Below are positions 4,977 to 59,036 of a stretch of 64,000 nucleotides of DNA, piece by piece; the first letter of the stretch is position 1, and every line of letters begins with the position of its first letter. The DNA lies in assembly GCA_963758915.1 (NCBI GenBank), contig CAVWXH010000009.1:160001-224000 (forward strand), in the 5' to 3' direction. The DNA comes from an uncultured Methanomicrobiales archaeon (GTDB lineage: Archaea > Halobacteriota > Methanomicrobia > Methanomicrobiales > Methanospirillaceae). The notes beneath the pieces are model-generated. The model had not been told where the DNA came from. It saw only the letters and a program-made list of their open reading frames with translations, and searched no databases. A program made the translations under genes and the position numbers.

Positions 4977-5002
4977 TTTATCTGCCTCCCGTTTTGTTCT
5001 CC

Positions 5003-5362: not shown

Positions 5363-5541
5363 TTCTTTCTCCTCCTGGCCCTATTTTCCGGGCACAATCA
5401 TGAATAACCGGGGTGTTATTATGAATTTTTGCCACTCACCTTTGCACGGCAGAGGGTGTCAGGATGCTTTTTTTCCTGTTTCTTACCGATGCATCGGCCC
5501 TCATAAACCTGTTAATTTTTTAAAAAATCATAGGAGCCGGT

Positions 5542-6225: not shown

Positions 6226-6338
6226 ACAATCGTTTCCCGATGATGTTCAGGTACTAAGAAGCTGGAACAATAAAAAAAGCAGTCGCCGGGTATCAGGTTC
6301 CAACAGGTCAACCTTTGCCTGGCCCAGTTTCCGCTACC

Positions 6339-7912: not shown

Positions 7913-9697
7913 CTACGTGCGCTTGAAAAGGAGATCAAGCCGTTCCCGTGTGAATGAGATCATCACGGGTCTCCCGTGAGGGCAGGTCCATGGTTCATTT
8001 GTGCGGTAGAGCTGGTCAAGAAGTCTCTGGCACTGGCCAGAGGTGAGCACACTCCCTGCTTTTATCGCTCCATGACATGCAATCGTCCGCGCAAGTTGTT
8101 CGCCGGAGTCGGTCACGTGTTTCCGTGGCAATGAGATGAGGTCCCCTATAATGTCCCGTACCATCTCCCCGTCACCGGGTTTCCCAAGGATTACCGGGAC
8201 CATGCGGACCGCGTAGGTATCCTTCCCAAACTCTTCAAGAGAGAATCCCTTTTCCAGGAGGATCGGGAGGTAATCCCTCAGGATGCCGGATTCCGCAGGA
8301 GACAGGGTAAGTATCGTAGGTACGAGCAGTTCCTGGGCTTCCTGGCCCAGGTCCCGGAATGCGGTTACCTGCTCGTACAGGACCCGCTCATGTGCCGCAT
8401 GCTGGTCGATCAGCAGCAGTTCCCCAGACGGTGCCTGTGCAAGGATATACGCCCCGGCGTACTGGCCGAGATAGATGAAATCCGGCGCCCCATCACCGCT
8501 GCTGGCTGTTCCTTGGAATAGTTCTGACTGCCGCAGCCTCCGGTCTGACAGGAGGACCGCCCCATGTCCGGCCTCGGCAACGACCGGTGCGGGCCTTGCC
8601 CGATGATCATATCCCTGTGAAACGCTACCGGAAGGACCGGACTTCCGAATACTATGAAACCCGTCAGGCACCCGCGGTACAAGGTCGGCCCCTTTCAGCG
8701 CCCGTGAAACAGCCCCGGTAACCATTGCACAGATATCACGTTCGCGGGAGATGTGCACGATGCGTTTTGCGGGGTGGACATTGACATCGATATAGGAAGG
8801 GTCCAGCCCGAGATCCAGAAACGCCACGGGATAGCGGTTGTCAGGGAGCAGGGTGCCGTATCCTGCCCTTACCGCGTCAACGACCGCCCTCGCATACACC
8901 TGCCGGTTGTTGATGCTCACGAAAACCTGGTAGATGTTCTGTCGTGAAAGTGATGGTTTCGATATGTAACCGCTCAGGTTCAGCGGACCCTCCGTTATAG
9001 ACACCGGGATAAGTTCTTCAGCCGCACCACTCCCGTAGAGGGCAACAATGGTATCGAACAAGTCTCCGCTCCCTTCGGTTGAAACCCGTTCATTCCCGTT
9101 ACTGGAGAATAAAAATGCAATCCCGGGATTCGCCACCGCAAACGCCTCCATAACCCGTGTAATTGCGGCAACCTCGGAACCAACAGATTTCTGGAACTTT
9201 TTCCTCGCGGGAGTGTTGAAAAAGAGGTCGCGTACCGTGATGCTCGTTCCGGCAGGGGCCCCTGTCCCGGTTACCTTCTCAATGTCCCCACCCCGGATTA
9301 TTACCTCGGTCGCACTCTCTCCGCCATCCCGTTCCATGGTGACCAGAATAACCTCGGAAACAGCTGCAATACTCGCCAGGGCTTCCCCGCGGAACCCGAG
9401 TGTCCGGCAGCAGTCCAGGTCAGCGATACACTGGATCTTGCTTGTCGCATGCGGGGTAAACGCAATGCAGGCATCTTCCGCCCCCATCCCGCACCCGTTA
9501 TCAGTGATCCTGACAGACGTGATACCTTCGCGGCCAGACTCAAGAAGTACAATTATCCTGGTGGCACCGGCATCGATGGAATTCTCCACCAGCTCCTTGA
9601 CGACAGACGCAGGGCGCTCCACGACCTCGCCCGCAGCAATCTGGTTCACCGTGGCCTGATCAAGGAGCCTGATCCGGGGACTCTGCTTCTCCGCCAT
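7913..9697 (-). CDS. mutL: DNA mismatch repair endonuclease MutL
   Basis: IAAGEVVERPASVVKELVENSIDAG, GFRGEAL, DVNVHP, DQHAAHER, CPHGRP. Confidence 0.97.
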   Translation of the reverse strand: MAEKQSPRIRLLDQATVNQIAAGEVVERPASVVKELVENSIDAGATRIIVLLESGREGITSVRITDNGCGMGAEDACIAFTPHATSKIQCIADLDCCRTLGFRGEALASIAAVSEVILVTMERDGGESATEVIIRGGDIEKVTGTGAPAGTSITVRDLFFNTPARKKFQKSVGSEVAAITRVMEAFAVANPGIAFLFSSNGNERVSTEGSGDLFDTIVALYGSGAAEELIPVSITEGPLNLSGYISKPSLSRQNIYQVFVSINNRQVYARAVVDAVRAGYGTLLPDNRYPVAFLDLGLDPSYIDVNVHPAKRIVHISRERDICAMVTGAVSRALKGADLVPRVPDGFHSIRKSGPSGSVSQGYDHRARPAPVVAEAGHGAVLLSDRRLRQSELFQGTASSGDGAPDFIYLGQYAGAYILAQAPSGELLLIDQHAAHERVLYEQVTAFRDLGQEAQELLVPTILTLSPAESGILRDYLPILLEKGFSLEEFGKDTYAVRMVPVILGKPGDGEMVRDIIGDLISLPRKHVTDSGEQLARTIACHGAIKAGSVLTSGQCQRLLDQLYRTNEPWTCPHGRPVMISFTRERLDLLFKRT

Positions 9698-12469: not shown

Positions 12470-12636
12470 TCTGGTTTACCATTAGGAAAACAGATCGGAA
12501 ATATCTCGCGGTATGAGTACCAGGTTTCCTGAGTCTTCGTCCCCAATCACGGGAACATTCCCCTGGCTGTAACCGGAACATATCATTATCAGTACGAATG
12601 GAAGGTTAATAGCAGTCCAGAAACGATTGTATATAC

Positions 12637-13107
12637 ATGACGGATGGTGGAAAACCACGCATTGCGGTTCTTGAGACGACGATGGGAACTATTTCTATTG
12701 AACTCGACAACAACATGCCAATCACTGCAGGGAATTTTGAAAAGCTCGTAAAAGAGGGATATTATGACGGGGTCATATTCCACCGGATTATCGACGGTTT
12801 TATGGTCCAGGGCGGGGATCCGACCGGTACCGGGTGCGGAGGACCGGGTTATGCAATCCGCGATGAATTTACACCCCCCAGCAAAAACAACCGCGGTACC
12901 ATTTCGATGGCTAATTCCGGACCGAACACAGGGGGGAGCCAGTTTTTCATCAACCTGGTAAATAACAACTTCCTCGACGGCCGCCACCCGGCCTTCGGAA
13001 AGGTCACTTCCGGGATGGACGTGGTGGATAAGCTCGCTAAAGTCCCAAAGGACGCCAGTGACAGGCCAAAAACGACGGTGAAAATAATTAAGGCAACGAT
13101 GCAGTAA
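12637..13107 (+). CDS. Cyclophilin-type peptidyl-prolyl isomerase
   Basis: FHRII.GFMVQGGDPTGTG, SMANSGPNTGGSQFFIN. Confidence 0.95.
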   Translation: MTDGGKPRIAVLETTMGTISIELDNNMPITAGNFEKLVKEGYYDGVIFHRIIDGFMVQGGDPTGTGCGGPGYAIRDEFTPPSKNNRGTISMANSGPNTGGSQFFINLVNNNFLDGRHPAFGKVTSGMDVVDKLAKVPKDASDRPKTTVKIIKATMQ

Positions 13108-13109
13108 GA

Positions 13110-13128
13110 CCTTTTTTTAATTTTTTTT
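13110..13128 (+). terminator. Archaeal oligo-T terminator
   Basis: CCTTTTTTTAATTTTTTTT immediately after the cyclophilin stop. Confidence 0.5.
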
Positions 13129-13304
13129 CACGACACCAGGGTTTCAACTACAGGTAACAGCGCCCCATTACGTCTCCTCATTACGTTATACCTGTGTTCT
13201 ACCAGATCATGCGGGCAGGATATCCCCTCCGGCAATAGTTCATACGTTGCCCCGGCAAAAACCCCTGGGAAATACAGAAATAAGCTCGTGACCAATTGAC
13301 GGGT

Positions 13305-15470
13305 ATGCCGTCCCATGAAAACAAGGGTCCAGCAGGAAAAAAAGGGCCGAAAAACCTGAATCGGCTCTCCGGGGAAAGCAGCCCTTACCTGCTCCAGCAT
13401 GCAGACAACCCGGTTGAATGGTACCCGTGGGGGGATGAGGCATTCCAGCTGGCAAAGATTCAGGACCGTCCGGTTTTCCTCTCGATCGGGTACTCGACGT
13501 GCCACTGGTGTCACGTGATGGCGCATGAATCATTCGGGGACGAGGAAGTGGCCACCCTGCTGAACAGGGCATTTATCTGCATCAAGGTGGACAGGGAAGA
13601 GCGTCCTGACATTGATGCACTCTATATGTCGGTTGCCCAGGCACTCACGGGATCAGGCGGATGGCCGCTCACCATCATTATGACACCCGAAAGAGAACCC
13701 TTTTTTGCAGCGACCTATATCCCGAAGGAGAGCAGGTTCGGGTCGAATGGGCTCCTTGACCTCATACCCGCTATCGAGACCTTCTGGAAAACCCGGCGGA
13801 GCGATATCCGGGAGACGGTAGAAAAGATTACCCGTGCACTTCAACACGGGGAGAGAACGAGAGTGGGTCAGCCAGTGACCGAAACGCTCCTCCATGCCGC
13901 ATACCACGACCTTGCACTGCGGTTCGATGCAAGCAACGGAGGGTTTTCCACTGCACCGAAATTCCCGACACCCCACACCATATCGTTTCTTCTCCGGTAC
14001 TGGAGGAGGACGGGTAAAAAAAATGCACTCGCGATGGTTGAGAAAACACTTCACGCAATGTCATACGGGGGAATTTATGACCATCTCGGGTATGGGTTCC
14101 ACCGGTATTCAACAGACTCACGGTGGCTCGTGCCACATTTTGAGAAAATGCTGTACGACCAGGCATTGCTCGTGACCGCCTATACAGAAGCATACCTCGC
14201 GACAGGTACCAGGTCATTTCGGACAACTGCAGAGGAGTGCCTTACATACCTCCTCCGCGATATGCGTGATCCGGGCGGAGGGTTTTACTCGGCGGAAGAC
14301 GCTGATAGCGAAGGAATTGAAGGGAAATTCTATCTCTGGAAAAAGAAAGAGATCGAGGAGGTGCTTGGCGATGATGCTCCCGGGTTTATCGGCACCTACC
14401 ACGTTAAGCAGGAAGGGAATTTCCTCTCACAGGAGACCGGGCAACGGACGGGAGAGAATATACTGCACCTTACGGACCCTCCGGGACATCCTGAATCAAT
14501 GGTCAGGGTAACGGAAGATGAAGGTATTGCGAGGATTTCCCGTGGACGGGAACACCTTTTCGCCTTCCGGAAGACCAGGGAACCGCCCCTGAAAGATGAC
14601 AAGGTACTGGCTGACTGGAACGGCCTTGTTATCTCGGCTCTTTCTCTTGCTGCGCGCGCATTCGGGGATGACCGGTATCTCGAAGCAGCAACCGGTGCAG
14701 CGGATTTCATTCTCGGGACAATGCGGTCCGGGAACGGGGAGCTCTTCCACCGGTACAGGAATGGGCAGCCGGGCATCCGCGGGGTTGCATCTGATTACGC
14801 TTACCTCTGCGCGGGGCTCCTTGACCTGTATGAACTTACATTTTCACCAGAATACCTGGAGGCCGCGATTGGGATCGAGGCATATTTCACCTGTCATTTC
14901 CTTGACAGCAGGGACGGAGGATATTTCACTTCCCACGAAGACGAGACAGATCTCATCATCCGGCAGAAAGATATCTATGATGGTGCGCTCCCTTCAGTCA
15001 ACTCGGTTGCCATGAAAAATCTTGTACGGCTCGGGCTGATGACAGCCAACACGGATTACCACGCACGGGCATGGGACCTTGCAGGGACCTTCTCAACGCT
15101 CGTTGAGCAGTCACCTGCAGCATATACGGCATTTCTTTCATCCCTCGATTTTGGTCTTGGACCGGCATCCAGCGTGGTAATAGTCGGCGATGACGGGGCT
15201 CCCGGAACGGTTGCCATGAAAGCAGCAATAAATTCCCGGTATTTACCGTCTGTTGTGGCCCTCCATAGGCCTGGAGGGGACGGGCCGTTCGAAATCGACC
15301 GTATATCGGGATTTACAGGGGAAATGAGAGAAACCGGAGGAAAAACTACCGCCTATGTCTGCAAAAACCACGCATGTTCCTATCCGGCTACCGATGCGGA
15401 TATCATGGTCGCGGAACTTGAAAAGATGTATGAACGGCCGGAGAACCAGGACCCCATAAAAAAGGGTTAG
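13305..15470 (+). CDS. Thioredoxin-domain plus alpha/alpha-barrel protein (YyaL/SSP411 family)
   Basis: [52 protein letters not shown]. Confidence 0.93.
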
Positions 15471-15943
15471 AGATTCTTCAGCGCCACAAGGTCTTTCACA
15501 CCGGTAAGTTTCCAGACAAGGGACCGTTCCTCTCTTGCAATTGCTTCAGGCGGGTCAAGCGGGGAATGACCGAGCGCTGCGAGGATATTCATAGAGAGGT
15601 GCTTTTCCTTGATTAAATCGATAAATCGCTGCCTGATAATTTTTTTCTCGATCGAATCATGCACTTCTTCAAGGTACCCCTGCATGGTAACGAAGGTGTA
15701 ACAGGAGAGGTCTTTCGTATATTTTTCCACCTCTACCGAAACATAGGGGCTTTTCCTGAAGTATTCGATCTTCTTCCCGTATTTTGTAGAGATGAAGTAT
15801 ATGAACTGACCGTCAAAAACATAAAGAAACGGGGCGATGTAGGGGTATTTTTCGCCCTGGAATGCAATACGGCTGATATATCCCTCTTCAATCAGGCGGT
15901 CATACTCCTCTTTTTCCATCCTTGGGATCTTTACAATCTCCAT
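15467..15943 (-). CDS. Pyridoxamine 5'-phosphate oxidase-like flavin-binding protein
   Basis: SRIAF..YPYIAP..Y..DG..IYF..GKKI; ATG at 15943. Confidence 0.8.
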
Positions 15944-20988: not shown

Positions 20989-21426
20989 CTGGTATGAAAA
21001 ACTCTGCGAGAACCTCATGCCGGCCAACTTTTCATATTCATCTATGAACCGAAGGCTCATAGCACGCTCTGTAGAAACACACATGAACGGGAAATTCACA
21101 CCCGAAACATGACCCTTTCAAAATCTCGTTATATCGGGGTTTCTTAAACTATTTTCATGGGAAATCCTGTGAAACTTAAAAAAGGTTTACAAAACTGCTT
21201 AGACAGGAGGGGGTTTCACCCCCTCCCTGCCCCACCCCCAACAAGATACTCTTTGGGCAGGGTTTACTAAAAACCGATTAAATTAAGAGTTTCTCGGAAT
21301 AGTCTCTATCCCAACCGGGGTCGCCACAGCGGCGGGGCATAGCCCCAGGAGCGTTGGAAAATTAATGAATAGACCGAAACGGTAAGGACATGGGATGGGC
21401 AGAAAGGAACAGACAATTTTGAGGGC
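20989..21426 (+). repeat. Dispersed structured repeat, copy A (full, plus upstream accessory module 20989-21065)
   Basis: GCTCTGTAGAAACACACATGAA...AGACAGGAGGGGGTTTCACCCCCTCCCTGCCCC...GGGCAGGG...ATCCCAACCGGGGTCGCC..GGCGGGGC..GCCCC, colinear with 59037-59377. Confidence 0.9.
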
Positions 21427-25859: not shown

Positions 25860-26201
25860 TCAGCCGGACGGACTATCCTTCGCCAGTTCATCGTTAAGCC
25901 AGGCGAGATAGGGTGGAAATCCCCCTGTGACAGGAATGACAATCATTTCAGGGAGTTCATACGTGTGGAGACGCCGGATGGCATCCATCACCACAGTCTT
26001 TTTTGAATCCATTGTCTTGATAATCAGGAGGGTCTCGGCATCCTCGCAGAATTCCCCTTTCCAATGGTAATATGACGAAATTCCGGTCATGTTCACGCAT
26101 GCAGCAATTCTTTCCCCGACGAGGGCTCGCGCAATGGCCTTCGCATTGTCAGGAGATGCAGTGGAGAGGATAATAACCGGGACATCAGTTGGCTGATTCA
26201 T
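25860..26201 (-). CDS. cutA: Divalent-cation tolerance protein CutA
   Basis: AACVN, SYYHWKG, LIIKT, HTYELPE. Confidence 0.92.
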   Translation of the reverse strand: MNQPTDVPVIILSTASPDNAKAIARALVGERIAACVNMTGISSYYHWKGEFCEDAETLLIIKTMDSKKTVVMDAIRRLHTYELPEMIVIPVTGGFPPYLAWLNDELAKDSPSG

Positions 26202-26524
26202 TTTCTGCTCAATCGTTCATTATGAGCAGCCCGATATATGAACCAGACGGCAGGCACGGAAATAATGTTCCGAAACCATCGAAAAAATCCCTGACTGGCA
26301 GATTTAATGAATGTAGGGTTTCAATCGGAACAAATTATGTACACAGTAAGGACACTCATGTTCGGGTATTGGTGTTTTTACCGTATCAGAGAAAACATCT
26401 AAAAGATTGATACAATCACCGGTCGGGATAACCCGGACCCGGTACTGAAGAGATATTCAGGGAATATTTATCTGGATTCTCTGATAATCATCAAAAATTG
26501 ACCATACACCATTAAGGTATCAGT

Positions 26525-27274
26525 ATGATCGACCATGAGATCAAGGATGCAGTCCGGAAGAGCTGGGACCACTCCTCAGTTATGTATGACAGCTGTCCGG
26601 GCCACGGGATCGGTACAGAGGAAGAGAAAGTCGCATGGAAACAGGAACTGGCCCGGAACATACCAGAATCGCCACAAAGGGTACTCGATATAGGGTGCGG
26701 AACAGCTGTTATGGGCCTTCTGTTTGCTGAGATGGGACACCAGGTTACCGGGGTCGACCTTTCGGAAGCGATGATAGCAAAAGCACGTGAGAAAGCTGAT
26801 GCACAAAACCTTCCGATTGAGCTGAGGACAGGGGATGCCGAACACCTTCCCTTCAGTAACGGATCTTTTGACGTGGTTGTCAACCGGCACCTCGTCTGGA
26901 CACTCCCTCACCCGGAGATTGCCCTGGAGGAATGGAACCGTGTCTTAAAAAAAGGGGGTGTGGTGCTCATCATCGAGGGGATCTGGAAGGATAATAGCGT
27001 TTCAATCCGGGTGAAACGAATATTGAGCGACGGGCTGGCAAAGATTTTTGGTCATACCCATGGCGGCCATTATGATGAAAAACTCAGGAGCCAGCTCCCC
27101 TATGATGGGGGAGTGCCGAAGGAAACAATGGTATCCGACCTGGAGCACGCGGGATTCACTGGCATCTGCTACCGGGATTTAATGTACATCCAGAAGATGC
27201 AGAAACCACAACAGCCGTGGTACCGGAGGTTCGCACCAGGCAAGACATACTATATCCTTGCTGCGACGAAATAG
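26525..27274 (+). CDS. Class I SAM-dependent methyltransferase
   Basis: VLDIGCGT, GVDLS..M, GDAEHLPF..SFD, RVLKKGG. Confidence 0.9.
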   Translation: MIDHEIKDAVRKSWDHSSVMYDSCPGHGIGTEEEKVAWKQELARNIPESPQRVLDIGCGTAVMGLLFAEMGHQVTGVDLSEAMIAKAREKADAQNLPIELRTGDAEHLPFSNGSFDVVVNRHLVWTLPHPEIALEEWNRVLKKGGVVLIIEGIWKDNSVSIRVKRILSDGLAKIFGHTHGGHYDEKLRSQLPYDGGVPKETMVSDLEHAGFTGICYRDLMYIQKMQKPQQPWYRRFAPGKTYYILAATK

Positions 27275-27451
27275 AACTGCATTGGGTTCCTTTGATGGAA
27301 ATTTTAAGTTTTATTCGCTTTTTAGTATATCACCGTTAACAGTGTGTTAAAAAAATTTGTAAATAAACGGATATAAAAAAATGTCCCGGAGACATGACAA
27401 AATCCTTTAAGAGCAGATTAATGAGCGTTCATGTTCAATTATTACAGGACT

Positions 27452-27497
27452 TTGTACGAACAACGAACGTATGTGCTCGCTTTTTGCATACTTTTTT
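27452..27497 (+). repeat. dapL-start/hairpin junction repeat, partial copy (hairpin arm only)
   Basis: TGTACGAACAACGAACGTATGTGCTCGCTTTTTGCATACTTTTT resembles 29153-29196. Confidence 0.8.
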
Positions 27498-27661
27498 TAT
27501 CCCACTCCCTGCCCTACTAAGCCTAATAAGCGGGGCTAAACCGCCGGTGCCTCCTGTCCGCAACCCTTCGGCTTCGCGAAAGGATTTCGCCTGGTGAAAT
27601 CATGGAGCGGAAACCAGGAGGCCAAAAATATATTTAATACCGTTCAACGTGACTACCCAAA

Positions 27662-28402
27662 TTATTCCGCTGTAATCCGGTCATAGAAAACCGCTGCACA
27701 CACTGCACCAACAACGGGCCCGATTATGTAAATGGGGAATAATACCCAGAGGTTCGGTCCACCCAGGGCCCAGTCCATGATATAAGGCCCGAATGTTCTT
27801 GCCGGGTTGAGAGATGCTCCGGCAATATTACCCGTCGCAGTGATCATGCCGGCAACCGTAAGACCAATGATAAGCCCGGCGAACCCTGGCGGGGCCTGCT
27901 TGTCCACCGCCACACCCATGATCACCAGCATCAGAACAAACGTTGCGATAGCCTCTACGAGAATGGCCTGCCCGTACCCGATACCGGGGAACGGAGTGGT
28001 TGCCCCAAGTCCCCCGATTGTAACGGCAGCCATTCCTATCGTCAGGAAAAACAACAGGCTCCCGATGGCAGCCCCGATACACTGGGCAACCACGTATACG
28101 GCTGTGTCACGGGTTGGGAACCGTTTCGTCACCCAGAGCGCAATAGTCACAGCAGGGTTAATATGCGCCCCGGAAACGCGTCCAAGTGAGTAGATAACGG
28201 CTGCAATGACAATACCAAACGTAATCCCGATAGCAAACCAGTCAGCAAGTCCCCCAAGCATACCGATCCCGATGTTGAAACTTGTCGCCGGTTTCAATCC
28301 GTTCGCAAGCATCAGGGTAATTGCCGCGGCCCCTGCACCGAAATACACCAGGAGCATCGTACCGACGCCTTCTGCAATACTGCGGGATGTGAGTGATACC
28401 AT
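27662..28402 (-). CDS. MIP-family channel (aquaporin, AqpM-like)
   Basis: SGAHINPAVT and GASLNPART NPA boxes, six hydrophobic segments; ATG 28402. Confidence 0.93.
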   Translation of the reverse strand: MVSLTSRSIAEGVGTMLLVYFGAGAAAITLMLANGLKPATSFNIGIGMLGGLADWFAIGITFGIVIAAVIYSLGRVSGAHINPAVTIALWVTKRFPTRDTAVYVVAQCIGAAIGSLLFFLTIGMAAVTIGGLGATTPFPGIGYGQAILVEAIATFVLMLVIMGVAVDKQAPPGFAGLIIGLTVAGMITATGNIAGASLNPARTFGPYIMDWALGGPNLWVLFPIYIIGPVVGAVCAAVFYDRITAE

Positions 28403-28614
28403 TACTTTCCATCCCCATAAGCAGCATTGCAGTCCGGGCAGAGCATCCGGGGCATTTTTCCCGGAAGTTTTTTCGAGGGAAGCGGGTAACCCCCCTCCCA
28501 CACATCGATTTCTTTTCTGATCGTATGCTTCATACAGGTCCCCATACCGCAGGCAACACATACAGCCACGGCGTCACTTTCTGTTCCTTCCTTTGCACAA
28601 ACGTAACATTTCAT
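28402..28614 (-). CDS. Cys-rich small protein (DUF2180 family)
   Basis: MKCYVC, CVACGMGTCMKH, LCPDC; TAATG stop/start overlap with the MIP gene. Confidence 0.85.
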   Translation of the reverse strand: MKCYVCAKEGTESDAVAVCVACGMGTCMKHTIRKEIDVWEGGYPLPSKKLPGKMPRMLCPDCNAAYGDGK

Positions 28615-28800
28615 ACTTTTTCACCTGTCTCCATCATCATAATTGACCCACCTTCTCATATCAGAAAAGGCGGTTTTTCATATTCGTGTATAAGAATGGT
28701 ATTTACCATTGAGCAGGATGAACATTTCGAAAAAAATATTGCGCACTTATAAAGGAAATGCTCAATATTCCCTGTTATAGAAAAATATTCAATTATTTGG

Positions 28801-28890
28801 GCTCTGTAGAAACACACATGAACGGGAAGTTCACACCCAAAACATGAAAATGCCCTTTCTACAATTTCTTCATATTGACGTTTGTTCAGG
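28801..28890 (+). repeat. Dispersed structured repeat, copy F (left-end fragment)
   Basis: GCTCTGTAGAAACACACATGAACGGGAAGTTCACACCCAAAACATGAAAATGCCCT resembles 59037-59092. Confidence 0.85.
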
Positions 28891-29079
28891 CAGGGACAAA
28901 TAATATTCCGACAAGTGCGATGATAACAAGAATCGAAACATAATGATTTAAGGATTTATTGGCCTTTGTCAAAGATAGTCCCCCATTATCGATACCTAAG
29001 TCATGGAGTATAATAAATTGTCAGGATATGGCGGGTTCAATGGTTTTTTTCTCACGGATTGTCATTGTTTAAAAATATT

Positions 29080-29250
29080 ACAAGGCAAAAATGACAGTGC
29101 AAGATTACGCTGCCGAAAGGGATGTATCGCATTAAATCAAAATATGTCCCGATGTACGCAAAACGAACGTAGGTGTTCGCTTTTTGCATACTTTTTCATA
29201 CTAATTTTCTTATCGTTTTTTATAGTTTTTTAACATATTACACCGTTCAC
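29080..29250 (+). repeat. dapL-start/hairpin junction repeat, full copy
   Basis: 29107-29165 is identical (59 nt) to 33409-33467, then continues into the hairpin arm shared with 30449-30480. Confidence 0.95.
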
Positions 29251-29344
29251 CGGGATAACAAAAATATTAAAAAAATAACCGATATTTTAAATTTTAATAG
29301 TTAATACAAGTTAATTCACAATTAATCGATGTAAGAGGATCGTT

Positions 29345-30223
29345 ATGGACAAGACACATATTTCAACCCTGGTGATCGCCGTAATGATCTGCCTCCTCGT
29401 GACGGCAGGCTGTACCAGTTCCCCAGGTACCCCGGCACACCCGGTACCGTCACCAGTCAACCCGTAACTCCGGTAGTCAGGGCGCCATCAGCCTGTATCG
29501 TTCAACGCAACCCCTGTCCAGTATGCAAAGGTCAACGGAGTGACGCTGGGATACCGGGAATTCGGAGCAGGTGAACCACTCCTGATGGCCCAGGGATTCG
29601 GGGACACCATTGATGACTGGAATGAGACGTTCATTGGCATCCTCGCCTCGAAATACCATGTATACACCTATGATCACCGGGGAATGGGCTACAGTAGCGA
29701 ATATAACGGGTCACCCACTATTGCACTCTATGCAGATGATGCCGCAAAACTGATTCCTGCACTTGGCTATGACAGCATGAATGTATACGGGGTCTCGATG
29801 GGTTCCTCGGTCTCCCAGCAACTGGTTATCGATCACCCTGAACGCGTACGAAAACTGGTACTGGATTCTGTGACCTACGACATCCGGATACCGGAGACCA
29901 GACTGCTGTACGTCCTCATTGTAACGGAGGGTAACAACCCCAACCAGACCCAGGGCGTTCATCAGGAGTCCCAGGCAAACCTCAACTGGAGCGGGTCCTG
30001 GGACCATCTTTCAGGAATCAATAAGACTGTCATGCTTGTCGTGGGCACCGCGGACGTACTGACTCCACAGAATGTTACGGTCCAGATTGCCGGGCAGATC
30101 AACGGATCGTGGCTCGTGCGGTTCAAGGGACTCCCGCATTTCGGGTCCAAGTATGCACCCGTCCAATACGGGGAGAACGCACTCGATTTCCTCGGCATGA
30201 ATGAGTCCCCGCTGGGAACATGA
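29345..30223 (+). pseudogene. Lipoprotein alpha/beta hydrolase with a disrupted linker
   Basis: ATG 29345 with TAGC lipobox is in frame with the hydrolase (YDHRGMG.S, GVSMG, GLPH), but TAA 29465 and TAG 29474 interrupt the linker. Confidence 0.7.
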
Positions 30224-30360
30224 AATCTTTTATTTTTCGCGGGACCTTTTTGTCCTCCAAAGTTGGGCCTTTTTCCCTATCATGAATGCACAGGCTGATT
30301 AGGCGGATCTGTATACCTACGGCCCCGGTGGATAATGTAAACTTTTTTTTAAAAAACCAA

Positions 30361-30535
30361 TTCACGGCAAAGGTGCCCGGTTCAAAATCACGCTGCCGAA
30401 AGGGATGTATCGCATTAAATCAAAATATGTCCAAATGTACGCAAAACGAACGTACGTGTTCGCTTTTTGCATACTTTTTCTCTACTAATTTTCAGCTCAG
30501 ATTTTCAAGATTTTTTAAAATAGCACACTGTTGAC
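30361..30535 (+). repeat. dapL-start/hairpin junction repeat, full copy
   Basis: 30390-30448 matches 33409-33467 at 57/59, followed by AACGTACGTGTTCGCTTTTTGCATACTTTTTC. Confidence 0.95.
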
Positions 30536-30586
30536 TGTGACAGCCGACTGGATTATTGTCTTTTTAGAATAAATCGGTCTACAAAA

Positions 30587-31333
30587 TCAGGAATTAAGGG
30601 CGGAATAGAGATCAATTATCCTATTAAGTGTTTTCCAGCCTTTATCAGTAATAATATAATCCCCTCGTTCATGTCGCTGAAGGATCATTCCTGTATCGGT
30701 AAGTTTCTTGATGTGGAATAACAGGTTTCCACCACGGAGTCCGGTCACCTGTGAAAGTTCTGAAAAGGTTCGGGTCTGCCCGGTAAGGGATTTCAATATC
30801 TGGAACCGCTGGACATTAGCTACAGGCTCAAGGATATTCCTGACCAGGTCGTCATCAGATATAACGGCACATATTGGATTTTCCTTATTTGAACGTTCAT
30901 AGATCCCAAGCGACTTGATGAGATCAACCTGTTTTTCAAAGAGCCTGCTGACTTCCTGGAAACAGGTATCACAGCGTTCAAAAGGGCCTTTTTTTCTCAT
31001 GCCCTTCAACTGTTCCCGAAACGATATAACGAGATCTTCGCTTACCCGTTCATCTTTGATATGTGTCGCAGAGGCCTGTAAAAACTCCATGAATACTGCA
31101 AAACAACTTTCCTGCATTTTACAATCAGGAACCATGTTTTTCGATAATTCGGTATGTGCTGTATCGACATGGTGGTTCACGAAAAGGTTTGCATAATTGT
31201 TTTTCAGATCGCTTACTACAGCCTGGATGTTCTGTGTGTTCGCATTTTCGATAAAGCGTTTTAATTCATTCCGAAGACCGTTGATTTCGGTTTTTATTTC
31301 ATTTAATTGAGATGCCGATGATGTACCTGCCAT
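30587..31333 (-). CDS. Winged-helix (ArsR-like) regulator with Cys-containing N-terminal domain
   Basis: C-terminal RFQILKSL..TFSELS..TGLRGGNLLFHIKKL..Y.IT.KG. Confidence 0.85.
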   Translation of the reverse strand: MAGTSSASQLNEIKTEINGLRNELKRFIENANTQNIQAVVSDLKNNYANLFVNHHVDTAHTELSKNMVPDCKMQESCFAVFMEFLQASATHIKDERVSEDLVISFREQLKGMRKKGPFERCDTCFQEVSRLFEKQVDLIKSLGIYERSNKENPICAVISDDDLVRNILEPVANVQRFQILKSLTGQTRTFSELSQVTGLRGGNLLFHIKKLTDTGMILQRHERGDYIITDKGWKTLNRIIDLYSALNS

Positions 31334-31472
31334 TCATGCCTCGTTACTCTCATGGTACGTGGTTCAACAATATTACTGTAAAGGTCATGCAACTGTAGTA
31401 ACTTTATTTAGTATATTTTTGTGACGCTCACGTATATATCACAAACCGATCCAGTATGTGTTGGTAAGAACC

Positions 31473-31718
31473 ATGACACAATCTGTAAAAGACCAGCTCC
31501 ATGCGCAAATCACAGGAGCACTCAAAGGCGCAAAATTTCCTATCAAGACCCCAGCAGACCTCATTGCAGCATTTCCAATGGGTGCAGACACAACCTGCCA
31601 GGTAGGGGCTGTGAAGATGACCGCCGGAGAAGCAGGAAAGTTATTGACCGCCAGCGACTTCCCCTTCAAGAGTGCGGATAGCGTTGCTGACACAATTCTT
31701 TCCCGTGCAGGAATGTAA
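31473..31718 (+). CDS. MTH865-family protein
   Basis: GAKFPIKTP.DL..AFP.G..TTC, DFPFKSA; ATG 31473. Confidence 0.85.
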   Translation: MTQSVKDQLHAQITGALKGAKFPIKTPADLIAAFPMGADTTCQVGAVKMTAGEAGKLLTASDFPFKSADSVADTILSRAGM

Positions 31719-31915
31719 TTTAGAGGATAATTATCCTCTCCTGCAATGGCAGGAATTATTTTTGATGAAAATTAAAGGATAGATTCATGCGAAGACGACA
31801 ACCTCTGTGGTGACACAGGGGAGCCTTGAACGATTTTTCATCTGCTAATTTATAAGAGATGCTCGATTCCTTTAGCTCTGATCCCACCGCTGCAACGACG
31901 CTCTTACAGGCCGTT

Positions 31916-32332
31916 TTACGTTGATTTTGTTAGGAACGGGGCGAACATCGGTGCGATCGTGGGCAGGTTGAAGTACTCTCGCCAGAGTGTGATGCGCCCA
32001 TGGTGCACTTCCATCACACCCGTGACGGGCAACTCAACCCAGCCATTTGGGAGGAGGTGCCGATCGAGTCGCTCCATAAATACGACGGGGCCTTGTGCCG
32101 CTTCGCGCAGCACAACAAACTCGTTTTCGAGCGTTGGCGCAAAAAATGGCTCCAGCAAGGCGCGAATACCCGCCGGCCCATAGACCTTGGCCTCGGGCAT
32201 GGGCAGGTTATCGTACTCACAATCATCGGAAACATACGAAAGTGCCGTGTCGTAGTCGAGCGTCGCCATTGCAGCAAAGAATGCCTTGACGACTTCAAGG
32301 GGAGACTGGGGATTCGTCGTAATAGATGTCAT
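31916..32332 (-). CDS. Limonene-1,2-epoxide hydrolase / NTF2-like protein
   Basis: YDNLP, VFMERLD, LPVTGVMEV..G.ITLWREYF. Confidence 0.85.
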   Translation of the reverse strand: MTSITTNPQSPLEVVKAFFAAMATLDYDTALSYVSDDCEYDNLPMPEAKVYGPAGIRALLEPFFAPTLENEFVVLREAAQGPVVFMERLDRHLLPNGWVELPVTGVMEVHHGRITLWREYFNLPTIAPMFAPFLTKST

Positions 32333-32395
32333 AATCAGTATTCTCTCGGTATAGTGATTTAAACAATTCACACCAAATAAACTCAGGGAAGTTTA

Positions 32396-33229
32396 ATGTC
32401 TGACATCGATTTGCTCCAGAAGATCGGTCTTTCTAAATACCAGGCATTAATTTATGCCTGCCTGCTCCGGAAAGGCCCACTTGATGCGAGAATTCTGTCA
32501 GGAGAATCTCATGTTCCTATGGGAAAAATCTATGAAACGCTCTCCCAACTTCTCATAAATGAAATAATTATCGAGCATTCCGGAAGGCCAAAAAAATACG
32601 AAGCCATCATTCCGGAAATTGCGTTTCAAAGAATCTATATGAAATATTATATCGAACACGAAAAACAGCGGGAGGATTTAAAAAATACCATAACTCAACT
32701 CGAACAGGGTTTAGAGAGAAAAACTCAAACATCACCCAATCTTCAGGATTTACAAATTATGTACAGCAATGAAGATATCCTGAATTATTTCATACGGATA
32801 CACAATGAAGCGAAAAAAGAAGTGATATATGTTACTCAGATTCGTTATGGTTCTTTTAATTCAGAACCTGATGAAAGAACATTACATTCATTAATGAACA
32901 ACCTGGTCAGTCTTTTGAAAAGGGGAATTTCTGTAAAAATAATTTACCCCAATTCCCCTTATTTAAATTTCTTTTCTCAAATCGCCTCCTGCATCCAGGA
33001 TGATGATACCCGGCAACTGTACCATGATCTGGTTGAAATCCGGGTTTGCAACACTGAACATAACTTCATACTCGTGGACAAAACAACGTGCATTTTTGAA
33101 CCTGAGGATCAAAGAGATCTCGCCCGGCCTTATGCAATGATCAGGATTCGTGATGCTATCCTGAATTCCCAGCTGAGAGGGGTTTTTCAAGAATTATGGG
33201 AAAATGCCATTCCTATCGGGAATGAATAA
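32396..33229 (+). CDS. TrmB-family transcriptional regulator
   Basis: IGLSKYQALIY..LL, VPMGKIYETL, RPKKY.A..PE. Confidence 0.88.
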   Translation: MSDIDLLQKIGLSKYQALIYACLLRKGPLDARILSGESHVPMGKIYETLSQLLINEIIIEHSGRPKKYEAIIPEIAFQRIYMKYYIEHEKQREDLKNTITQLEQGLERKTQTSPNLQDLQIMYSNEDILNYFIRIHNEAKKEVIYVTQIRYGSFNSEPDERTLHSLMNNLVSLLKRGISVKIIYPNSPYLNFFSQIASCIQDDDTRQLYHDLVEIRVCNTEHNFILVDKTTCIFEPEDQRDLARPYAMIRIRDAILNSQLRGVFQELWENAIPIGNE

Positions 33230-33379
33230 GGTCATGAAACTGTTTTTACATCATTTAATCTCATTTATCTGCTGAATTGATGGATCGTGAAGGAAGGTTA
33301 CTCTCTTTAAGGGAACAGGGAAGCGAACGGTCGACCAGCGGGGTTCAGATAAGATGTCTGCCAAAAGACGGGCACTTTA

Positions 33380-33467
33380 TACACCGCAAAGTTACTCGGT
33401 TCAAGATCACGCTGCCGAAAGGGATGTATCGCATTAAATCAAAATATGTCCCGATGTACGCAAAACG
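33380..33467 (+). promoter_or_regulatory. dapL upstream region and first codons (source copy of the junction repeat)
   Basis: ATTAAAT TATA-like box about 20 nt before ATG 33454; duplicated at 29.1 and 30.4 kb. Confidence 0.65.
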
Positions 33468-34602
33468 TATGGGCCAGCTTCCCCCTTACCTTTTTGCCCG
33501 GATCGATGAGATGAAGGCCGAGAAAATAAGGAGCGGCGTTGATGTCATTGACCTCGGGGTAGGTGACCCTGATCTTCCAACACCACAACATATCGTGGAA
33601 TCTCTCTGCGAGGCTGCACAACACGTGGAAAACCACCATTACCCGAGTTACGCCGGAATGCCACAGTACCGGAGTGCTGTTGCAGACTGGTATAAAACAC
33701 GGTTCGGTGTATCGCTGGACCCGGGCAAAGAAGTACTTGCCCTGATGGGATCAAAAGACGGAATTACACACATTGGCGAGGCCTTCGTCAATCCCGGGGA
33801 CTACGTGCTTGCCCCAAGCCCGGGTTACCCGGGGTACTATACAGGAACACTGTTTTCTGAGGGAAGGGTACATGAGATGCCATTACTCAGGGAGAATAAT
33901 TTTATTCCTGTCCTTTCGGATATCCCGAAGGACGTCCTTAAAACGGCAAAGCTGATGTTCATTAATTACCCGAACAATCCCACTGCAGCGGTGGCTTCAA
34001 CAGATTTCTACCGCGAGGTGGTGGATTTTGCCGGCGAGAACAATATCATTGTTGTTTCTGATAACCCCTACTCGGAAATTGCCTATGACGGGTACCGTGC
34101 ACCATCTTTCCTTGAGGTGAAAGGAGCGATGGATGTCGGGGTCGAGATGCACTCACTCTCAAAGACTTATAACATGACAGGGTGGAGGATCGGTATGGCG
34201 GTAGGTAACGCCGATATCCTTTCGGGGCTTGGCCGTGTCAAGACCAACGTGGATTCCGGCGTGTTCAACGCGGTGCAGCACGCCGCAATCACGGCCCTGT
34301 CAGGCCCGCAGGACTGTGTCAGGGAGGCCTGCGCAGTCTACCAGGAGCGGCGTGACATCCTTGTAAAAGGACTGAACGAAATGGGATATAACGTCCCCGC
34401 CCCAAAAGCTACCTTCTACGTATGGATGCAGGTCGATGACTGCATGAAATTTTCCGCCATGATGCTTGATAAGGCAGGTATTGTCGTCACACCCGGTGTA
34501 GGGTTCGGGCGCTCGGGTGAGGGGTATGTACGGTTTGCACTTACCCGGCCGAAGGAACGCATTATAGAAGCACTTGGCAGGATGAGGGGGCTTTCGGCGT
34601 GA
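33454..34602 (+). CDS. dapL: LL-diaminopimelate aminotransferase
   Basis: LPPYLFA.ID, NYPNNPT, HSLSKTYNMTGWRIG, KTNVDSG; overlaps lysA. Confidence 0.9.
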   Translation: MYAKRMGQLPPYLFARIDEMKAEKIRSGVDVIDLGVGDPDLPTPQHIVESLCEAAQHVENHHYPSYAGMPQYRSAVADWYKTRFGVSLDPGKEVLALMGSKDGITHIGEAFVNPGDYVLAPSPGYPGYYTGTLFSEGRVHEMPLLRENNFIPVLSDIPKDVLKTAKLMFINYPNNPTAAVASTDFYREVVDFAGENNIIVVSDNPYSEIAYDGYRAPSFLEVKGAMDVGVEMHSLSKTYNMTGWRIGMAVGNADILSGLGRVKTNVDSGVFNAVQHAAITALSGPQDCVREACAVYQERRDILVKGLNEMGYNVPAPKATFYVWMQVDDCMKFSAMMLDKAGIVVTPGVGFGRSGEGYVRFALTRPKERIIEALGRMRGLSA

Positions 34603-35891
34603 AACTCCCTCCACACCTATCAGTGCAGGGCGGGCATCTCACCATAGGCCAGCATGACCTGGTGACCCTTGCACAGGAGTATGGGACCCCGCTCTATGTC
34701 ACCGATGAACAACGTATCTGCGACAATTACACGCGGTACCAGAAAGCCCTGGCAACCCTGTACCCGAAATCGAAGGTGCTCTATGCCGCGAAGGCCAACG
34801 GGAACATTTCGCTCCTCCGCGCCCTGGGGAAACTTGGTGCCGGCGCCGATGTTTTCTCTCCCGGGGAACTCGAGCTTGCATTATCAGCAGGAATGAAACC
34901 GGCAGACCTTCTCTTTAACGGGAGTTCAAAGAGCCCTGCGGATCTAGCCCTTGCTGTAACGCATGGTATTACCGTCTCGGTTGACTCGCTTGACGAACTC
35001 CACCAGCTCGATGCTGCTGCCAAAGCAGGCGGGAAAAAAGCGCGGATCTCGTTCCGTGTCAACCCTGCACTCCACATTCCAACCCACCCGAAAATCGCGA
35101 CCGGGGTTGCATCAAGCAAGTTCGGTATTGCCCACGACAAGATCCTGTCCGCTTACAGGGAGGCACTCGCATGCAGCAATGTAGTCCCGGTCGGGGTCCA
35201 CTGCCACATAGGTTCCCAGATCCTCGAGATCGAACCCTTTGTGAAGGCTGCAGAAGTGATGGTAAAGGTCGCAAAAGACCTGACCGCGATAGGTGTAACT
35301 CTTGAATTTATCGACCTTGGCGGTGGTCTCGGCATCCCCTACCACCACGACACCGATCCCGCACCAACCCCTGAGGACTACGCCCGTGCAGTCGTGCCGG
35401 TGTTTGTCGAGGGAATCACCGCGGCAGGTATCAGCCCTGCGCTCTGGGTGGAGCCGGGGAGGTACCTCGTCGCCGATTCTTCGGTACTCCTCACCCGTGT
35501 GAATTCAGTCAAGTTCGCCCACAAAAATTTTGTCAACGTGGACGCAGGATTCAACCTCCTCATCCGTCCGACAATGTACGACTCATACCACGAGGTCATC
35601 GTCGCCAACAAGGCAGCATCTCCGGCAACAGAGACCTATTCGATAGCGGGTCCGATCTGTGAGACAGGGGATATTCTCGCGGCTGACCGGTTACTACCGG
35701 TTGTAGAAGCAGGGGACATAATCGCCGTCCTTGATGCCGGAGCGTACGGGTTTGCAATGGCATCGCAGTACAACTGCCGGCCGAGATGTGCCGAAGTCCT
35801 CGTAAAAGGAAAAGATAAGGCGCTTATGCGGAACAGGGAGACCACGGAGGACATCACCTCAACAATGGTCACACCACCGTGGCAGCAGTAA
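34599..35891 (+). CDS. lysA: Diaminopimelate decarboxylase
   Basis: YAAKAN, HCHIGSQI, GGGLG, EPGRY, GPICETGD, GAYG. Confidence 0.96.
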   Translation: MKLPPHLSVQGGHLTIGQHDLVTLAQEYGTPLYVTDEQRICDNYTRYQKALATLYPKSKVLYAAKANGNISLLRALGKLGAGADVFSPGELELALSAGMKPADLLFNGSSKSPADLALAVTHGITVSVDSLDELHQLDAAAKAGGKKARISFRVNPALHIPTHPKIATGVASSKFGIAHDKILSAYREALACSNVVPVGVHCHIGSQILEIEPFVKAAEVMVKVAKDLTAIGVTLEFIDLGGGLGIPYHHDTDPAPTPEDYARAVVPVFVEGITAAGISPALWVEPGRYLVADSSVLLTRVNSVKFAHKNFVNVDAGFNLLIRPTMYDSYHEVIVANKAASPATETYSIAGPICETGDILAADRLLPVVEAGDIIAVLDAGAYGFAMASQYNCRPRCAEVLVKGKDKALMRNRETTEDITSTMVTPPWQQ

Positions 35892-41894: not shown

Positions 41895-42360
41895 CCCTCT
41901 CAAATCTATCTTGCAGATTGGGAATTCACGCTGGTATGAAAAACTCCACGAACCACCTGAAAGACGACCTTTTTCATACTCATCTATGAGCCAACGGCTC
42001 ATAGCACGCTCTGTTGAAGAGCTATAATAGGCACCCAGAATCCTGATTATTCTGAAATTTATCTTCGCTCCAGGGGCTCATGGCCCGCCGCTTTGGCGAC
42101 CCCGGTTGGGATAGAGACTATTCCCAATACTCTGAATGTAATGAGCCTTCGCCGAAACCCTGCCCGAAGAATATCTGAATGGGGGTGAAGCAGGGAGGCG
42201 GTGAAACCCCCTCCTGTCTACATATTCTCCACTTCTTTTTTAAAATTCTCATAATTTCCCCTGTAAATGCCTGAACGGCCACCAATCTGAAGAAATTTTG
42301 AACGTGGTATTTTCAATCGTTCGGGTGTGAACTTCGCGTTCATCTGTGTTTCAACAAAGA
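41895..42360 (-). repeat. Dispersed structured repeat, copy C (reverse, with a + strand accessory module at 41931-42017)
   Basis: 42066-42360 is the reverse complement of copy A; 41931-42014 matches 20989-21072. Confidence 0.9.
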
Positions 42361-58948: not shown

Positions 58949-59036
58949 CCCCCGGGGTAGATCTCTTCAGATTTCTGCATCGGAAGTTCGCGGTAAATAA
59001 TTTCTTTAAGGAAAGATCCTTTATTCTAAAAAATTG

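Follow-up and report, generated by a model that had tools for sequence, protein, structure and literature searches.

Introduction

How does the chromosome of a methanogen come to carry a row of small, functionally unrelated gene sets, each bounded by a copy of the same sequence, directly ahead of a housekeeping gene? This question is raised by the region upstream of dapL in an uncultured Methanomicrobiales archaeon (GCA_963758915.1, designated here G000; its relatives are numbered in the same way, and contigs are marked C). The G000 assembly consists of 18 contigs (2.38 Mb, 94% complete). The window, that is, the whole analyzed stretch of 64,000 nt, corresponds to positions 160001–224000 of contig C9. 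A preliminary description of the window had proposed that small circular units repeatedly inserted at the start of dapL and restored it. We found that the locus is a real, reproducible, lineage-specific cassette array, whose mechanism we infer from sequence comparisons. Found in one subclade of a Methanomicrobiales genus, the array separates dapL from what had been upstream of it. At slightly better than an even chance, we read it as a chromosomal array of integrase-less mobile cassettes inserted at a short core sequence by a trans-acting recombinase; homologous recombination would account for additional losses.

The Repeat in Front of dapL

The 59 nt at 33409–33467 of the window are found again at 29107–29165 (59/59) and at 30390–30448 (57/59). 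The two internal copies, compared as 29097–29197 and 30380–30480, are 94% identical over 101 nt and run past the dapL start into a common arm. The segment 27453–27496 consists of the start and the arm alone and is 91% identical to each internal copy. The distances between the starts of the repeat copies are 1700, 1283, and 3019 bp. The coordinates, identities, and spacings had been given exactly in the preliminary description, and its layout of an attL-like, two attP-like, and an attR-like copy is real. Its gene identities were confirmed by Pfam and TIGR03540.

A profile built from 11 aligned copies of five genomes extends the repeat unit to about 180 nt. It places the full copies at 29080–29259 and 30361–30543, a copy with the upstream part (P) only at 33380–33478, and a copy with the arm only at 27452–27504. 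A search for the 44-nt core and arm with up to three mismatches gave two matches in the window vs. 0.00 expected from 100 shuffles. Scatter over the genome, a concern raised by the preliminary description, was checked as well: in the whole G000 assembly, BLAST and profile searches found the complete unit and the core at this locus only. The other G000 profile matches span just positions 3–60 and represent the 3′ ends of histidine-kinase paralogues.

The features of the region are listed from left to right.

25860–26201, minus strand: cutA, the left conserved flank (Pfam CutA1, 8e-31)
26525–27274, plus strand: S-adenosylmethionine (SAM)-dependent methyltransferase gene (Pfam Methyltransf_11, 6.6e-28)
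27452–27504, plus strand: arm-only (attL-like) copy with a degenerate dapL start (TTG...), spacer, right half-site, and a run of T (T-run)
27505–29079, no strand assigned: cassette 1 with MIP and DUF2180 genes and three small elements; its position in the array is specific to G000
27662–~28400, minus strand: MIP aquaporin-family gene of cassette 1 (Pfam)
28402–28614, minus strand: DUF2180 gene of cassette 1 (Pfam)
29080–29259, plus strand: full copy 1 (attP-like) with the hydrolase-type arm
29260–30360, plus strand: cassette 2 with a lipoprotein-type alpha/beta hydrolase gene (29345–30223; Pfam), present in five genomes
30361–30543, plus strand: full copy 2 (attP-like) with the arm of the ArsR-like/MTH865 type
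30544–31851, no strand assigned: cassette 3a with genes for an ArsR-like winged helix-turn-helix protein (30587–31333, minus) and MTH865 (31458–31718, plus) (Pfam)
31860–33379, no strand assigned: cassette 3b with LEH/SnoaL (31916–32371, minus) and TrmB-like (32396–33229, plus) genes (Pfam)
33380–33467, plus strand: P-only (attR-like) copy with a histidine-kinase tail relic, upstream region, and dapL codons 1–5
33454–34602 and 34599–35891, plus strand: dapL and lysA, the right conserved flank with the target gene (TIGR03540, Pfam)

Full copy 1 comprises the upstream region to 29151, the ATG at 29152, half-sites at 29153–29168 and 29175–29191, the spacer between them (29169–29174), and then the T-run. 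The DapL sequence reaches 618.5 bits with TIGR03540 (cut-off 593.25), and the alignment begins at residue 2; therefore, translation starts at the first ATG (33454), which makes the repeated ATGTACGCAAAACG part of the coding sequence.

The 3019-bp interval, regarded as one unit in the preliminary description, turned out to be two fused cassettes. Homology with G006 and G003 stops at 31851, and homology with G009 begins at 31860. The ArsR-like/MTH865 cassette stands alone in G006 and the LEH/TrmB cassette in G009; the two are fused in G000 and G012. There is no repeat at the 3a/3b junction of G000; at this place, contig C187 of G002 retains a remnant of the distal arm.

The hydrolase gene is disrupted in G000 by a −1/+1 indel pair (29345–29560) relative to G012, G003, and G010, so that TAA and TAG come into frame past the lipoprotein signal. 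G003 (289 aa) and G010 (300 aa) have the gene intact. The G000 gene is either a pseudogene or the product of a pair of assembly errors. When contigs of three public runs were mapped to 26300–34000, those of runs X2 and X4 differed by indels in the same segment, 29345–29560.

Arrays in Related Genomes

The repeat was searched for in 61 genomes, G000 and 60 relatives. Convincing matches are confined to the window's genus, where seven of the 12 other species carry it in addition to G000 (8/13). Matches in three cases from other genera (24–38 nt, E 0.001–0.008) were treated as chance. With cutA placed at the left, the arrays read as follows (RR, response regulator).

G000: methyltransferase / arm-only / MIP, DUF2180 / full / hydrolase / full / ArsR-like, MTH865, LEH, TrmB / P-dapL
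G012: methyltransferase / arm-only / three small open reading frames (ORFs), HXXEE / full / hydrolase / full / ArsR-like, MTH865, LEH, TrmB / P-dapL
G009: cutA, ArsR, DGC, ArsP, methyltransferase / arm-only / PAS kinase / full / hydrolase / full / RR-PAS kinase (1334 aa) / full / LEH, TrmB / P-dapL
G003: cutA / arm-only / aldo-keto reductase-Fer4 / full / HXXEE / full / hydrolase / full / RR-PAS kinase (split by an ISAzo13-family transposase gene) / P-dapL
G006: cutA, DUF475 / full / ArsR-like, MTH865 / full / orf131 / P-dapL
G010: ..., radical SAM / degenerate arm (by eye) / hydrolase / P-dapL

The fragments available from G005 and G002 are consistent with the same scheme. The leftmost copy is arm-only in five assemblies (G000, G002, G003, G009, and G012). 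The leftmost copy detected in G006 is full, and in G010, a degenerate arm upstream of the hydrolase gene was recognized by eye only. The copy on the dapL side is P-only in all seven genomes with the repeat on the dapL contig, whatever cassette adjoins it. At least ten types of cargo occur in the eight species, with boundaries at the repeat. The cassettes are 0.6–4.6 kb in size and carry one to four ordinary genes on either strand. The alpha/beta-hydrolase cassette is found in five genomes with differing neighbors. The comparison of relatives suggested in the preliminary description was thus run, and it showed units varying in number and kind, with breakpoints at the repeat.

Arrays of this type break contigs in fragmented metagenome-assembled genomes (MAGs), and the G009 and G012 arrays are each joined from two contigs via an overlap inside the hydrolase gene, as might be expected of chimeras induced by the repeat. 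However, this architecture is also contained in single contigs of G000, G003 (55.5 kb), G006 (234 kb), and G010, and contigs from three unrelated runs cover all its parts. It recurs in at least six independent assemblies, so the misassembly considered in the preliminary description drops out, and an artefact is hardly credible.

In the other five species of the genus, the repeat was not found. Three of them possess dapL (78–79% aa identity); it was not found in G004 (74% complete) and G011 (65% complete). In G007, a distant congener, the gap between cutA and dapL is 110 bp and represents an empty site, and G001 and G008 have other genes there. The dapL genes of these three species begin with the same first codons (...GTATGCAAAACGTATGGG), and the sequence upstream of them differs. 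Consequently, P is not the ancestral dapL promoter and came with the cassettes. This corrects the preliminary description, which took the repeated sequence for the dapL promoter.

Some variation at the locus lies apart from the repeat. The interval between cutA and the arm-only copy (26202–26524 in the window) is also variable, without repeats at its boundaries. ArsR, DGC, and ArsP permease genes precede the methyltransferase gene in G009 and G010 (the permease gene is frameshifted in G009), G000 has the methyltransferase gene alone, and G003 has neither. In G003 (C340; 8152–9360 of locus L037), a gene for an ISAzo13-family DDE transposase (2.7e-145) splits the RR/PAS kinase gene that is intact in G009.

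Anatomy of the Repeat Unit

The unit consists of P (about 75 nt), the core, and then the T-run and arm. Approximately 60–65 nt at the left of P are a relic of the 3′ end of a histidine-kinase gene; P also holds the conserved dapL upstream region, and the conserved block GCCGAAAGGG...TTAAATCA is present in its copies. Translated in frame, the left part (~60 nt) gives ...FKITLPKGMYRIKS, a motif found at the C-terminus of HATPase_c histidine kinases. The kinase ORF of the four cassettes bearing one terminates within the repeat (576 and 1334 aa in G009, 487 aa in G005, and a C-terminal fragment of 335 aa in G003), and the Pfam HATPase_c matches in these kinases extend to the last 6–9 residues. The scattered 24–50-nt profile matches across the genomes represent the kinase-tail part alone and are kinase 3′ ends where checked (G005:C266 and G000:C3:343146).

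The core can be written as TGTACGCAAAACGAAC - GTAnGT - GTTCGCTTTTTGCATAC, with inverted half-sites of 15–17 nt and a spacer of 6 nt; the half-sites read ...AAAACGAAC / GTTCGCTTTTT. The left half-site is formed by dapL codons 1–5. The right one, on the arm side, is an imperfect inverted repeat of the dapL start, a point not made in the preliminary description. As single-stranded DNA, full copy 1 folds with −9.3 kcal/mol (z −3.07) and full copy 2 with −10 kcal/mol (z −3.03). No folding potential was detected in the arm-only (z −0.05) or the P-only (z −0.93) copy.

Since a terminator scan flags the hairpin and T-run in both full copies, and since a 20-nt block, GCCGAAAGGGATGTATCGCA, is nearly invariant in 19 copies, the unit might be a duplicated regulatory leader, with a promoter, a short leader, and a terminator (an attenuator or small RNA), and not a recombination site. 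However, four of the 13 full copies are followed by a gene on the opposite strand (ArsR-like, LEH), and no relevant Rfam family was matched up to an E value of 1. The gain and loss of whole cassettes and the arm-only and P-only junctions would not be accounted for either. We regard a leader as very improbable.

The two ends of the unit are associated with different neighbors. The first ~20 nt of the arm are common to most copies, and the remainder falls into types tied to the right-hand cargo: one precedes the hydrolase (four genomes), another the ArsR-like gene (four loci), and a third the RR/PAS kinase (two genomes). The left edge of P varies with the left-hand cargo; tacaccgcaaagttac, for example, is found after the TrmB-like gene in G000, G012, and G009. 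The travelling unit is therefore the arm, the cargo, and P, in this order.

The junctions point to the same core. The similarity of the arm-only copies begins at TGTACG in all four left contexts, namely the methyltransferase gene, whose downstream flank is the left context in four genomes (G000, G002, G009, and G012), cutA (G003), the CHAD gene (G003:C350), and orf127 (G005:C69; degenerate in G009:C25). To the left of the arm-only copy of the window, the sequence is unrelated to P. The P-only copies stop at ...AAAACG or ...GAACG. Hence the stretch common to arm-only, full, and P-only copies, across four left contexts and two right ones, is the TGTACG...AACG core.

Three further comparisons were set aside. 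Old diverged full copies were considered as the origin of the arm-only copies, and the left flanks of the latter as the ancestral dapL promoter; overall, the local alignments were not above shuffles in either case (3/500 and 5/500 in the two borderline cases). The identity of P within and between genomes was not used, as indels upset the ungapped comparison.

A Second Locus

The proposal that the repeat is bound to dapL holds within G000; in three related genomes, the core and arm also occur at a second locus away from dapL. The ArsR-like/MTH865 pair, a single-copy pair with 96–99% aa identity in six species, belongs to the dapL array in G000, G012, and G006; a short contig of G002 has it next to LEH/TrmB. 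On G003:C350 and G009:C25, the pair occupies the second locus, between orf127 or the CHAD gene and a CHASE4 kinase gene (4395–6355 of locus L053 and 8677–15546 of locus L130, respectively). There it sits behind a diverged core and arm, degenerate in G009, and in G003 a diverged P with the start follows the pair. On G005:C69, the core and arm are found at the second locus with different cargo. G007 possesses a homologous pair (61%/78%) without the repeat; the cargo thus derives from the gene pool of the genus itself.

Rearrangements were also observed at this locus. G009 and G003 differ by an inversion, relative to the left neighbors, of a segment that starts at the core and runs past the CHASE4 kinase gene; as roughly mapped, one breakpoint lies at the core. 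G005 has the CHAD gene reversed and across the core. Such inversions may stem from recombination at the palindromic core.

Evidence for Cassette Movement

The cassettes of several species are more similar to those of G000 than the flanking genes are. In G012, the nucleotide identity to G000 is 96.8–97.6% for cassettes vs. 83.1–90.8% for flanks; the corresponding values are 93.1–93.4% vs. 79.7–85.6% in G003 and 93.4–95.5% vs. 87.2–93.1% in G009. No such excess was seen in G006 and G010.

Cassette 1 represents a gain, in the form of a host gene pair that was relocated. The MIP and DUF2180 pair is matched in 40 of the 61 genomes across the order, and the only G000 copy is in the array. In relatives, the pair is located elsewhere, beside a kinase gene (G012, G009, and G005) or on other contigs (G003 and G004). 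The corresponding site in G000 (C3:341860–347430) carries a 1302-aa ORF instead; a stretch of ~90 nt there matches the end of the G009 MIP gene and looks like a remnant of the original copy. At the native MIP locus of G009, a kinase-tail relic is present just 3′ of MIP.

Metagenomes indicate that the array is polymorphic among populations. One contig of run X4 (depth 4.5, 84 nt on its shorter side) joins 27492 to 29192 and omits 1699 nt of cassette 1. The joint rests on this single assembled contig; the joined arms share an exact run of just 20 nt, so we take it as real sequence. The depth of cassette 1 in X4 is 0–2.9 vs. 4.5–19 over most other parts. In run X1, cassette 1 has a depth of 11.8, and most of the hydrolase cassette 0–0.35. 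Additionally, a loose contig end before 33405 in X4 carries the left edge of P seen after orf131 in G006.

Three small elements of cassette 1 are dispersed in the genome. The first is a structured-looking repeat of ~117 nt (27505–27621) directly after the arm-only T-run, with 85% identical copies at G000:C10:157636–157752 and C4:5307–5423 and further ones in most species of the genus; it may be similar to a miniature inverted-repeat transposable element (MITE) or represent a small RNA. The second is a 38-nt element with a short hairpin (28800–28838), resembling repetitive extragenic palindromic (REP) sequences. It has 61 copies in the genome, on 16 of 18 contigs; those in the window are at 21066–21103, 42323–42352, 51808–51832, and 59036–59074, and an inverted copy lies between cutA and DUF475 in the G006 array. 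In the metagenome contigs, it shows as a depth spike of 115–153 with diverse flanks. A solitary repeat of clustered regularly interspaced short palindromic repeats (CRISPR) was rejected as an explanation of this spike, as it corresponds to the REP-like element and no array is present. The third element (160 nt, 28889–29048) has an 86% identical copy at G000:C3:84926–85085, ~3 kb from a XerA-like gene, and a 79% identical one at G010:C172:25724–25877, ~1.3 kb from the XerA-like gene of G010.

Search for a Recombinase

As the preliminary description had stated, there is no recombinase in the window, and the same is true of the arrays of all relatives. Family searches of the genome detected no tyrosine recombinase (no PF00589 match), serine recombinase, or Y1 transposase on the window's contig. 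Among 49 ORFs from the loci of relatives and the ORFs of the window, there were no members of integrase, resolvase, or Y1 transposase families.

Elsewhere in G000, the best match is a XerA-type recombinase on C3 (317 aa, NF040815, 281.9 bits with a cut-off of 220), and integron-integrase models remain far below their cut-off (95 vs. 265 bits). Contig C18 encodes a 400-aa integrase with a C-terminal Zn ribbon, and a tyrosine integrase gene on C5, likewise with a Zn-ribbon tail, is frameshifted. Serine recombinases and Y1 transposases were not found in the genome. The preliminary description had recommended looking for a recombinase that co-occurs with the repeat, and none does so cleanly. The 400-aa integrase was rejected for this role: orthologues (≥85%) are present in just four of the seven other array genomes, G005, G009, G002 (partial), and G012 (partial), and absent from G003, G006, and G010. 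Paralogues of a second integrase family are too numerous for such a comparison. In G006 (83% complete), only the XerA-like gene was found.

No other palindrome similar to the core was found in G000 (up to three substitutions in the half-sites, spacers of 4–9 nt), so imitation of another site, such as dif, by the core is not supported. There is no core or arm near the integrase loci that were fetched. A marginal arm-like match on G000:C5 (E 0.05 genome-wide) is located 4.4 kb from the broken integrase gene. A helper element at this place is unsupported, as no flanking direct repeats were found and the orthologous integrase locus, G009:C18, has no arm-like match. The segment G000:C5:13800–19100, a block of ORFs without Pfam matches that ends in the frameshifted integrase, is probably a decayed integrated element. 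Among genome-contig records, the core pattern matched once, in the same genus; the single metagenome match was regarded as chance, being inside a coding region of an unrelated contig.

How the Cassettes May Move

Each cassette would consist of the right core half with the T-run and a short arm, the cargo, and then P with the first five dapL codons. In a circularized cassette, the ends would join into a complete core of 15–17-nt inverted half-sites and the 6-nt spacer. This core would recombine with the same sequence at the dapL start or in any existing copy, and the cassette would be inserted. Such insertion would produce an arm-only junction at the left, full copies between cassettes, and P with the start before dapL. 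Because P and the start would always be left there, dapL-lysA would stay expressed. P would serve as the dapL promoter, and the hairpin with the T-run would act as an insulator or terminator that halts transcription from internal P copies. The candidate enzyme is a tyrosine-type recombinase supplied in trans: the host XerA, an unlinked integrase of 400–460 aa, or an enzyme of an unbinned plasmid or virus. Homologous recombination between the direct repeats of 100–180 nt probably adds deletions and homogenizes copies.

Three considerations favor site-specific recombination in trans. The geometry of the core fits a tyrosine-recombinase site; part of PMC2958812 describes searches for such sites as 11–15-bp inverted repeats with 4–10-bp spacers. 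Cassettes of unrelated cargo retain the right half-site, for which the host has no counterpart. Finally, the junction forms in the four left and two right contexts share one core.

Several observations weigh against site-specific capture. Shared cassettes are colinear in every genome and never occur in the opposite order: HXXEE precedes the hydrolase in two genomes, and the hydrolase precedes the RR kinase in two, ArsR-like/MTH865 in two, and LEH/TrmB in three. A longer ancestral array that lost cassettes can therefore account for much of the variation, and the difference from genome to genome is limited to the leftmost cassette, which is distinct in each of the four genomes with known leftmost cargo. 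The copies before the hydrolase in G012, G003, and G009 are identical rightward from the ATG and different leftward, and for G000 and run X4, the change occurs immediately past the right half-site, on its right. These polymorphisms do not place the exchange in the spacer, and the pattern is what homologous exchange would give. No compensatory changes between the half-sites were noticed by eye. Circular junctions or excision products are absent from the assembled contigs, which cannot show rare forms. The lack of a cleanly co-occurring recombinase is a further difficulty, and three scans of viral contigs gave no match to the core pattern and no free element with the site (MAGs may lack plasmids). 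The idea of repeated capture is supported in part by the cassette-wise variation at the repeat, and the colinear order assigns part of that variation to differential loss.

Colinearity would also be expected if the locus were a fossil of larger plasmids or proviruses with integrases, which integrated in tandem at the dapL start, decayed, and now remain static, varying by deletion. The hydrolase pseudogene in G000 is in line with this, and tandem integration followed by loss of the integrase is described for archaeal elements in part of PMC8371274. On the other hand, at least ten cassette types in eight genomes contain no integrase, replication, or virion gene. Their cargo is ordinary host-type genes, including a core gene pair found across the order, in cassettes of 0.6–4.6 kb. 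Moreover, the cassettes are more alike between species than the flanks, and one insertion is polymorphic among present-day populations. A fossil appears improbable.

Homologous exchange is the main rival as the sole mechanism. According to it, a first cassette with a copy of the dapL 5′ region was enough, and the arrays then arose and were reshuffled by Campbell-type single crossovers, unequal crossing-over, and gene conversion between the 100–180-nt direct repeats, with DNA uptake from relatives and no dedicated recombinase. The repeats are long enough for RadA-type exchange, and the inferred boundaries fall at varying points of the conserved segment. Within G000, P is conserved (59/59 and 57/59) despite differing neighbor cargo, as gene conversion would give. 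The flanks are mosaic: in comparison with G010, the identity is 98% for cutA and the methyltransferase gene but 89% for dapL. The absence of a recombinase co-occurring with the arrays agrees with it as well. However, it leaves three facts unexplained: the retained right half-site, an inverted repeat of the dapL start with no host counterpart; the arm-only junctions that begin at the same base in four unrelated left contexts; and the same cassette at a second locus that shares just the core and arm. Taken together, this makes exchange by homology alone a serious possibility, though a doubtful one as the whole explanation.

We accordingly keep site-specific insertion in trans, with homologous losses, as the working reading. 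A more extensive version, conceivable but with less than an even chance, is that the genus possesses a gene-capture platform not based on IntI. Host genes would be turned into cassettes, and the ~180-nt site would function as a replacement promoter and start for an essential lysine gene. Cassettes would pass between no fewer than two chromosomal loci and between species, the recombinase would be encoded elsewhere (XerA or a Zn-ribbon integrase), and the core would seed inversions.

To our knowledge, gene-cassette platforms are known essentially as integrons, which are defined by IntI and attC. The dapL locus would represent a different archaeal solution, in which the site is fused to a promoter and gene start, the expression of an essential operon is kept at each insertion, and no enzyme is present in cis. 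If active, it would be a tractable model for the exchange of small adaptive genes (transporters, regulators, sensor kinases, and hydrolases) across species of methanogens. It would also supply a defined DNA substrate for finding an archaeal recombinase and, possibly, a tool for site-specific insertion in methanogens. As one cassette is visibly a relocated host gene pair, the locus bears on the unsolved origin of cassettes.

Comparison with Known Systems

A literature search, which did not cover supplements, found nothing on dapL-linked arrays or on the repeat. Insertion sequences and MITEs do not fit, since the unit ends are direct and not inverted copies; the sole transposase in the arrays is the ISAzo13-family DDE gene inside one G003 cassette. 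Part of PMC8371274 deals with archaeal plasmids and viruses that integrate in tandem at one locus, some of them without an integrase afterwards. Those are whole replicons with backbone genes, usually in tRNA genes, whereas the dapL units are 0.6–4.6-kb cassettes of ordinary genes.

The SXT/R391 elements insert at the 5′ end of prfC and replace its start. For DusA-associated integrase islands, insertion at the 5′ end of a protein gene is likewise reported in part of PMC4482086. The dapL array is similar in that it, too, targets a housekeeping gene at its first codons and provides this gene with an upstream region and start; P with the start precedes dapL in seven genomes. Unlike the array, which has no integrase in cis, those elements are tens of kb long and carry their own integrase beside the att site.

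Cis-mobilizable elements (CIMEs) and the accretion of integrative elements at one att site are known, e.g., at fda in Streptococcus thermophilus. Tandem ssrA islands of Dehalococcoides are described in part of PMC3146451. These systems share with the array tandem units parted by att copies, integrase-less units that use the enzyme of a related element, and growth beside an existing unit; accordingly, attL-, attP-, and attR-type copies with a common core are present at dapL. However, CIME and ssrA arrays include or adjoin an element bearing an integrase with the same att, and none was found here in 13 genomes and viral contigs. The dapL units are also far smaller, and their host is archaeal.

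Integrative mobile elements exploiting Xer (IMEX) use the host Xer recombinases at dif. The array resembles them in its tandem integrase-less elements and in the Xer-like geometry of the core, with inverted arms and a 6-nt spacer; its target differs from dif. Mimicry of dif finds no support, as no other similar palindrome was found in G000 (an assembly 94% complete).

The boxes of integron attC sites follow the pattern R″/R′ RYYYAAC ... GTTRRRY. The right half-site GTTCGCT of the array departs from GTTRRRY when compared by eye with this consensus. Copies in the dapL array are 85–97% alike over 100–180 nt, whereas attC sites are diverse. Furthermore, the array lacks intI, attI, and Pc, and its platform is the 5′ end of a housekeeping gene. 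Each of its sites bears a kinase-gene tail of ~65 nt and a promoter, and the cargo lies on either strand and comprises up to four genes. Archaeal integrons are reported in part of PMC9668308 from 75 MAGs with six IntIs, most of them being clusters of attC sites lacking integrases (CALINs). CALINs have no integrase of their own and are presumed to depend on one in trans; likewise, the dapL array has no enzyme in cis. Both are chromosomal arrays of small cassettes with diverse cargo and hairpin-capable sites, vary among strains, and undergo fusion of cassettes when a site is lost. As in integrons, the number and content of cassettes at dapL vary among relatives at the site boundaries.

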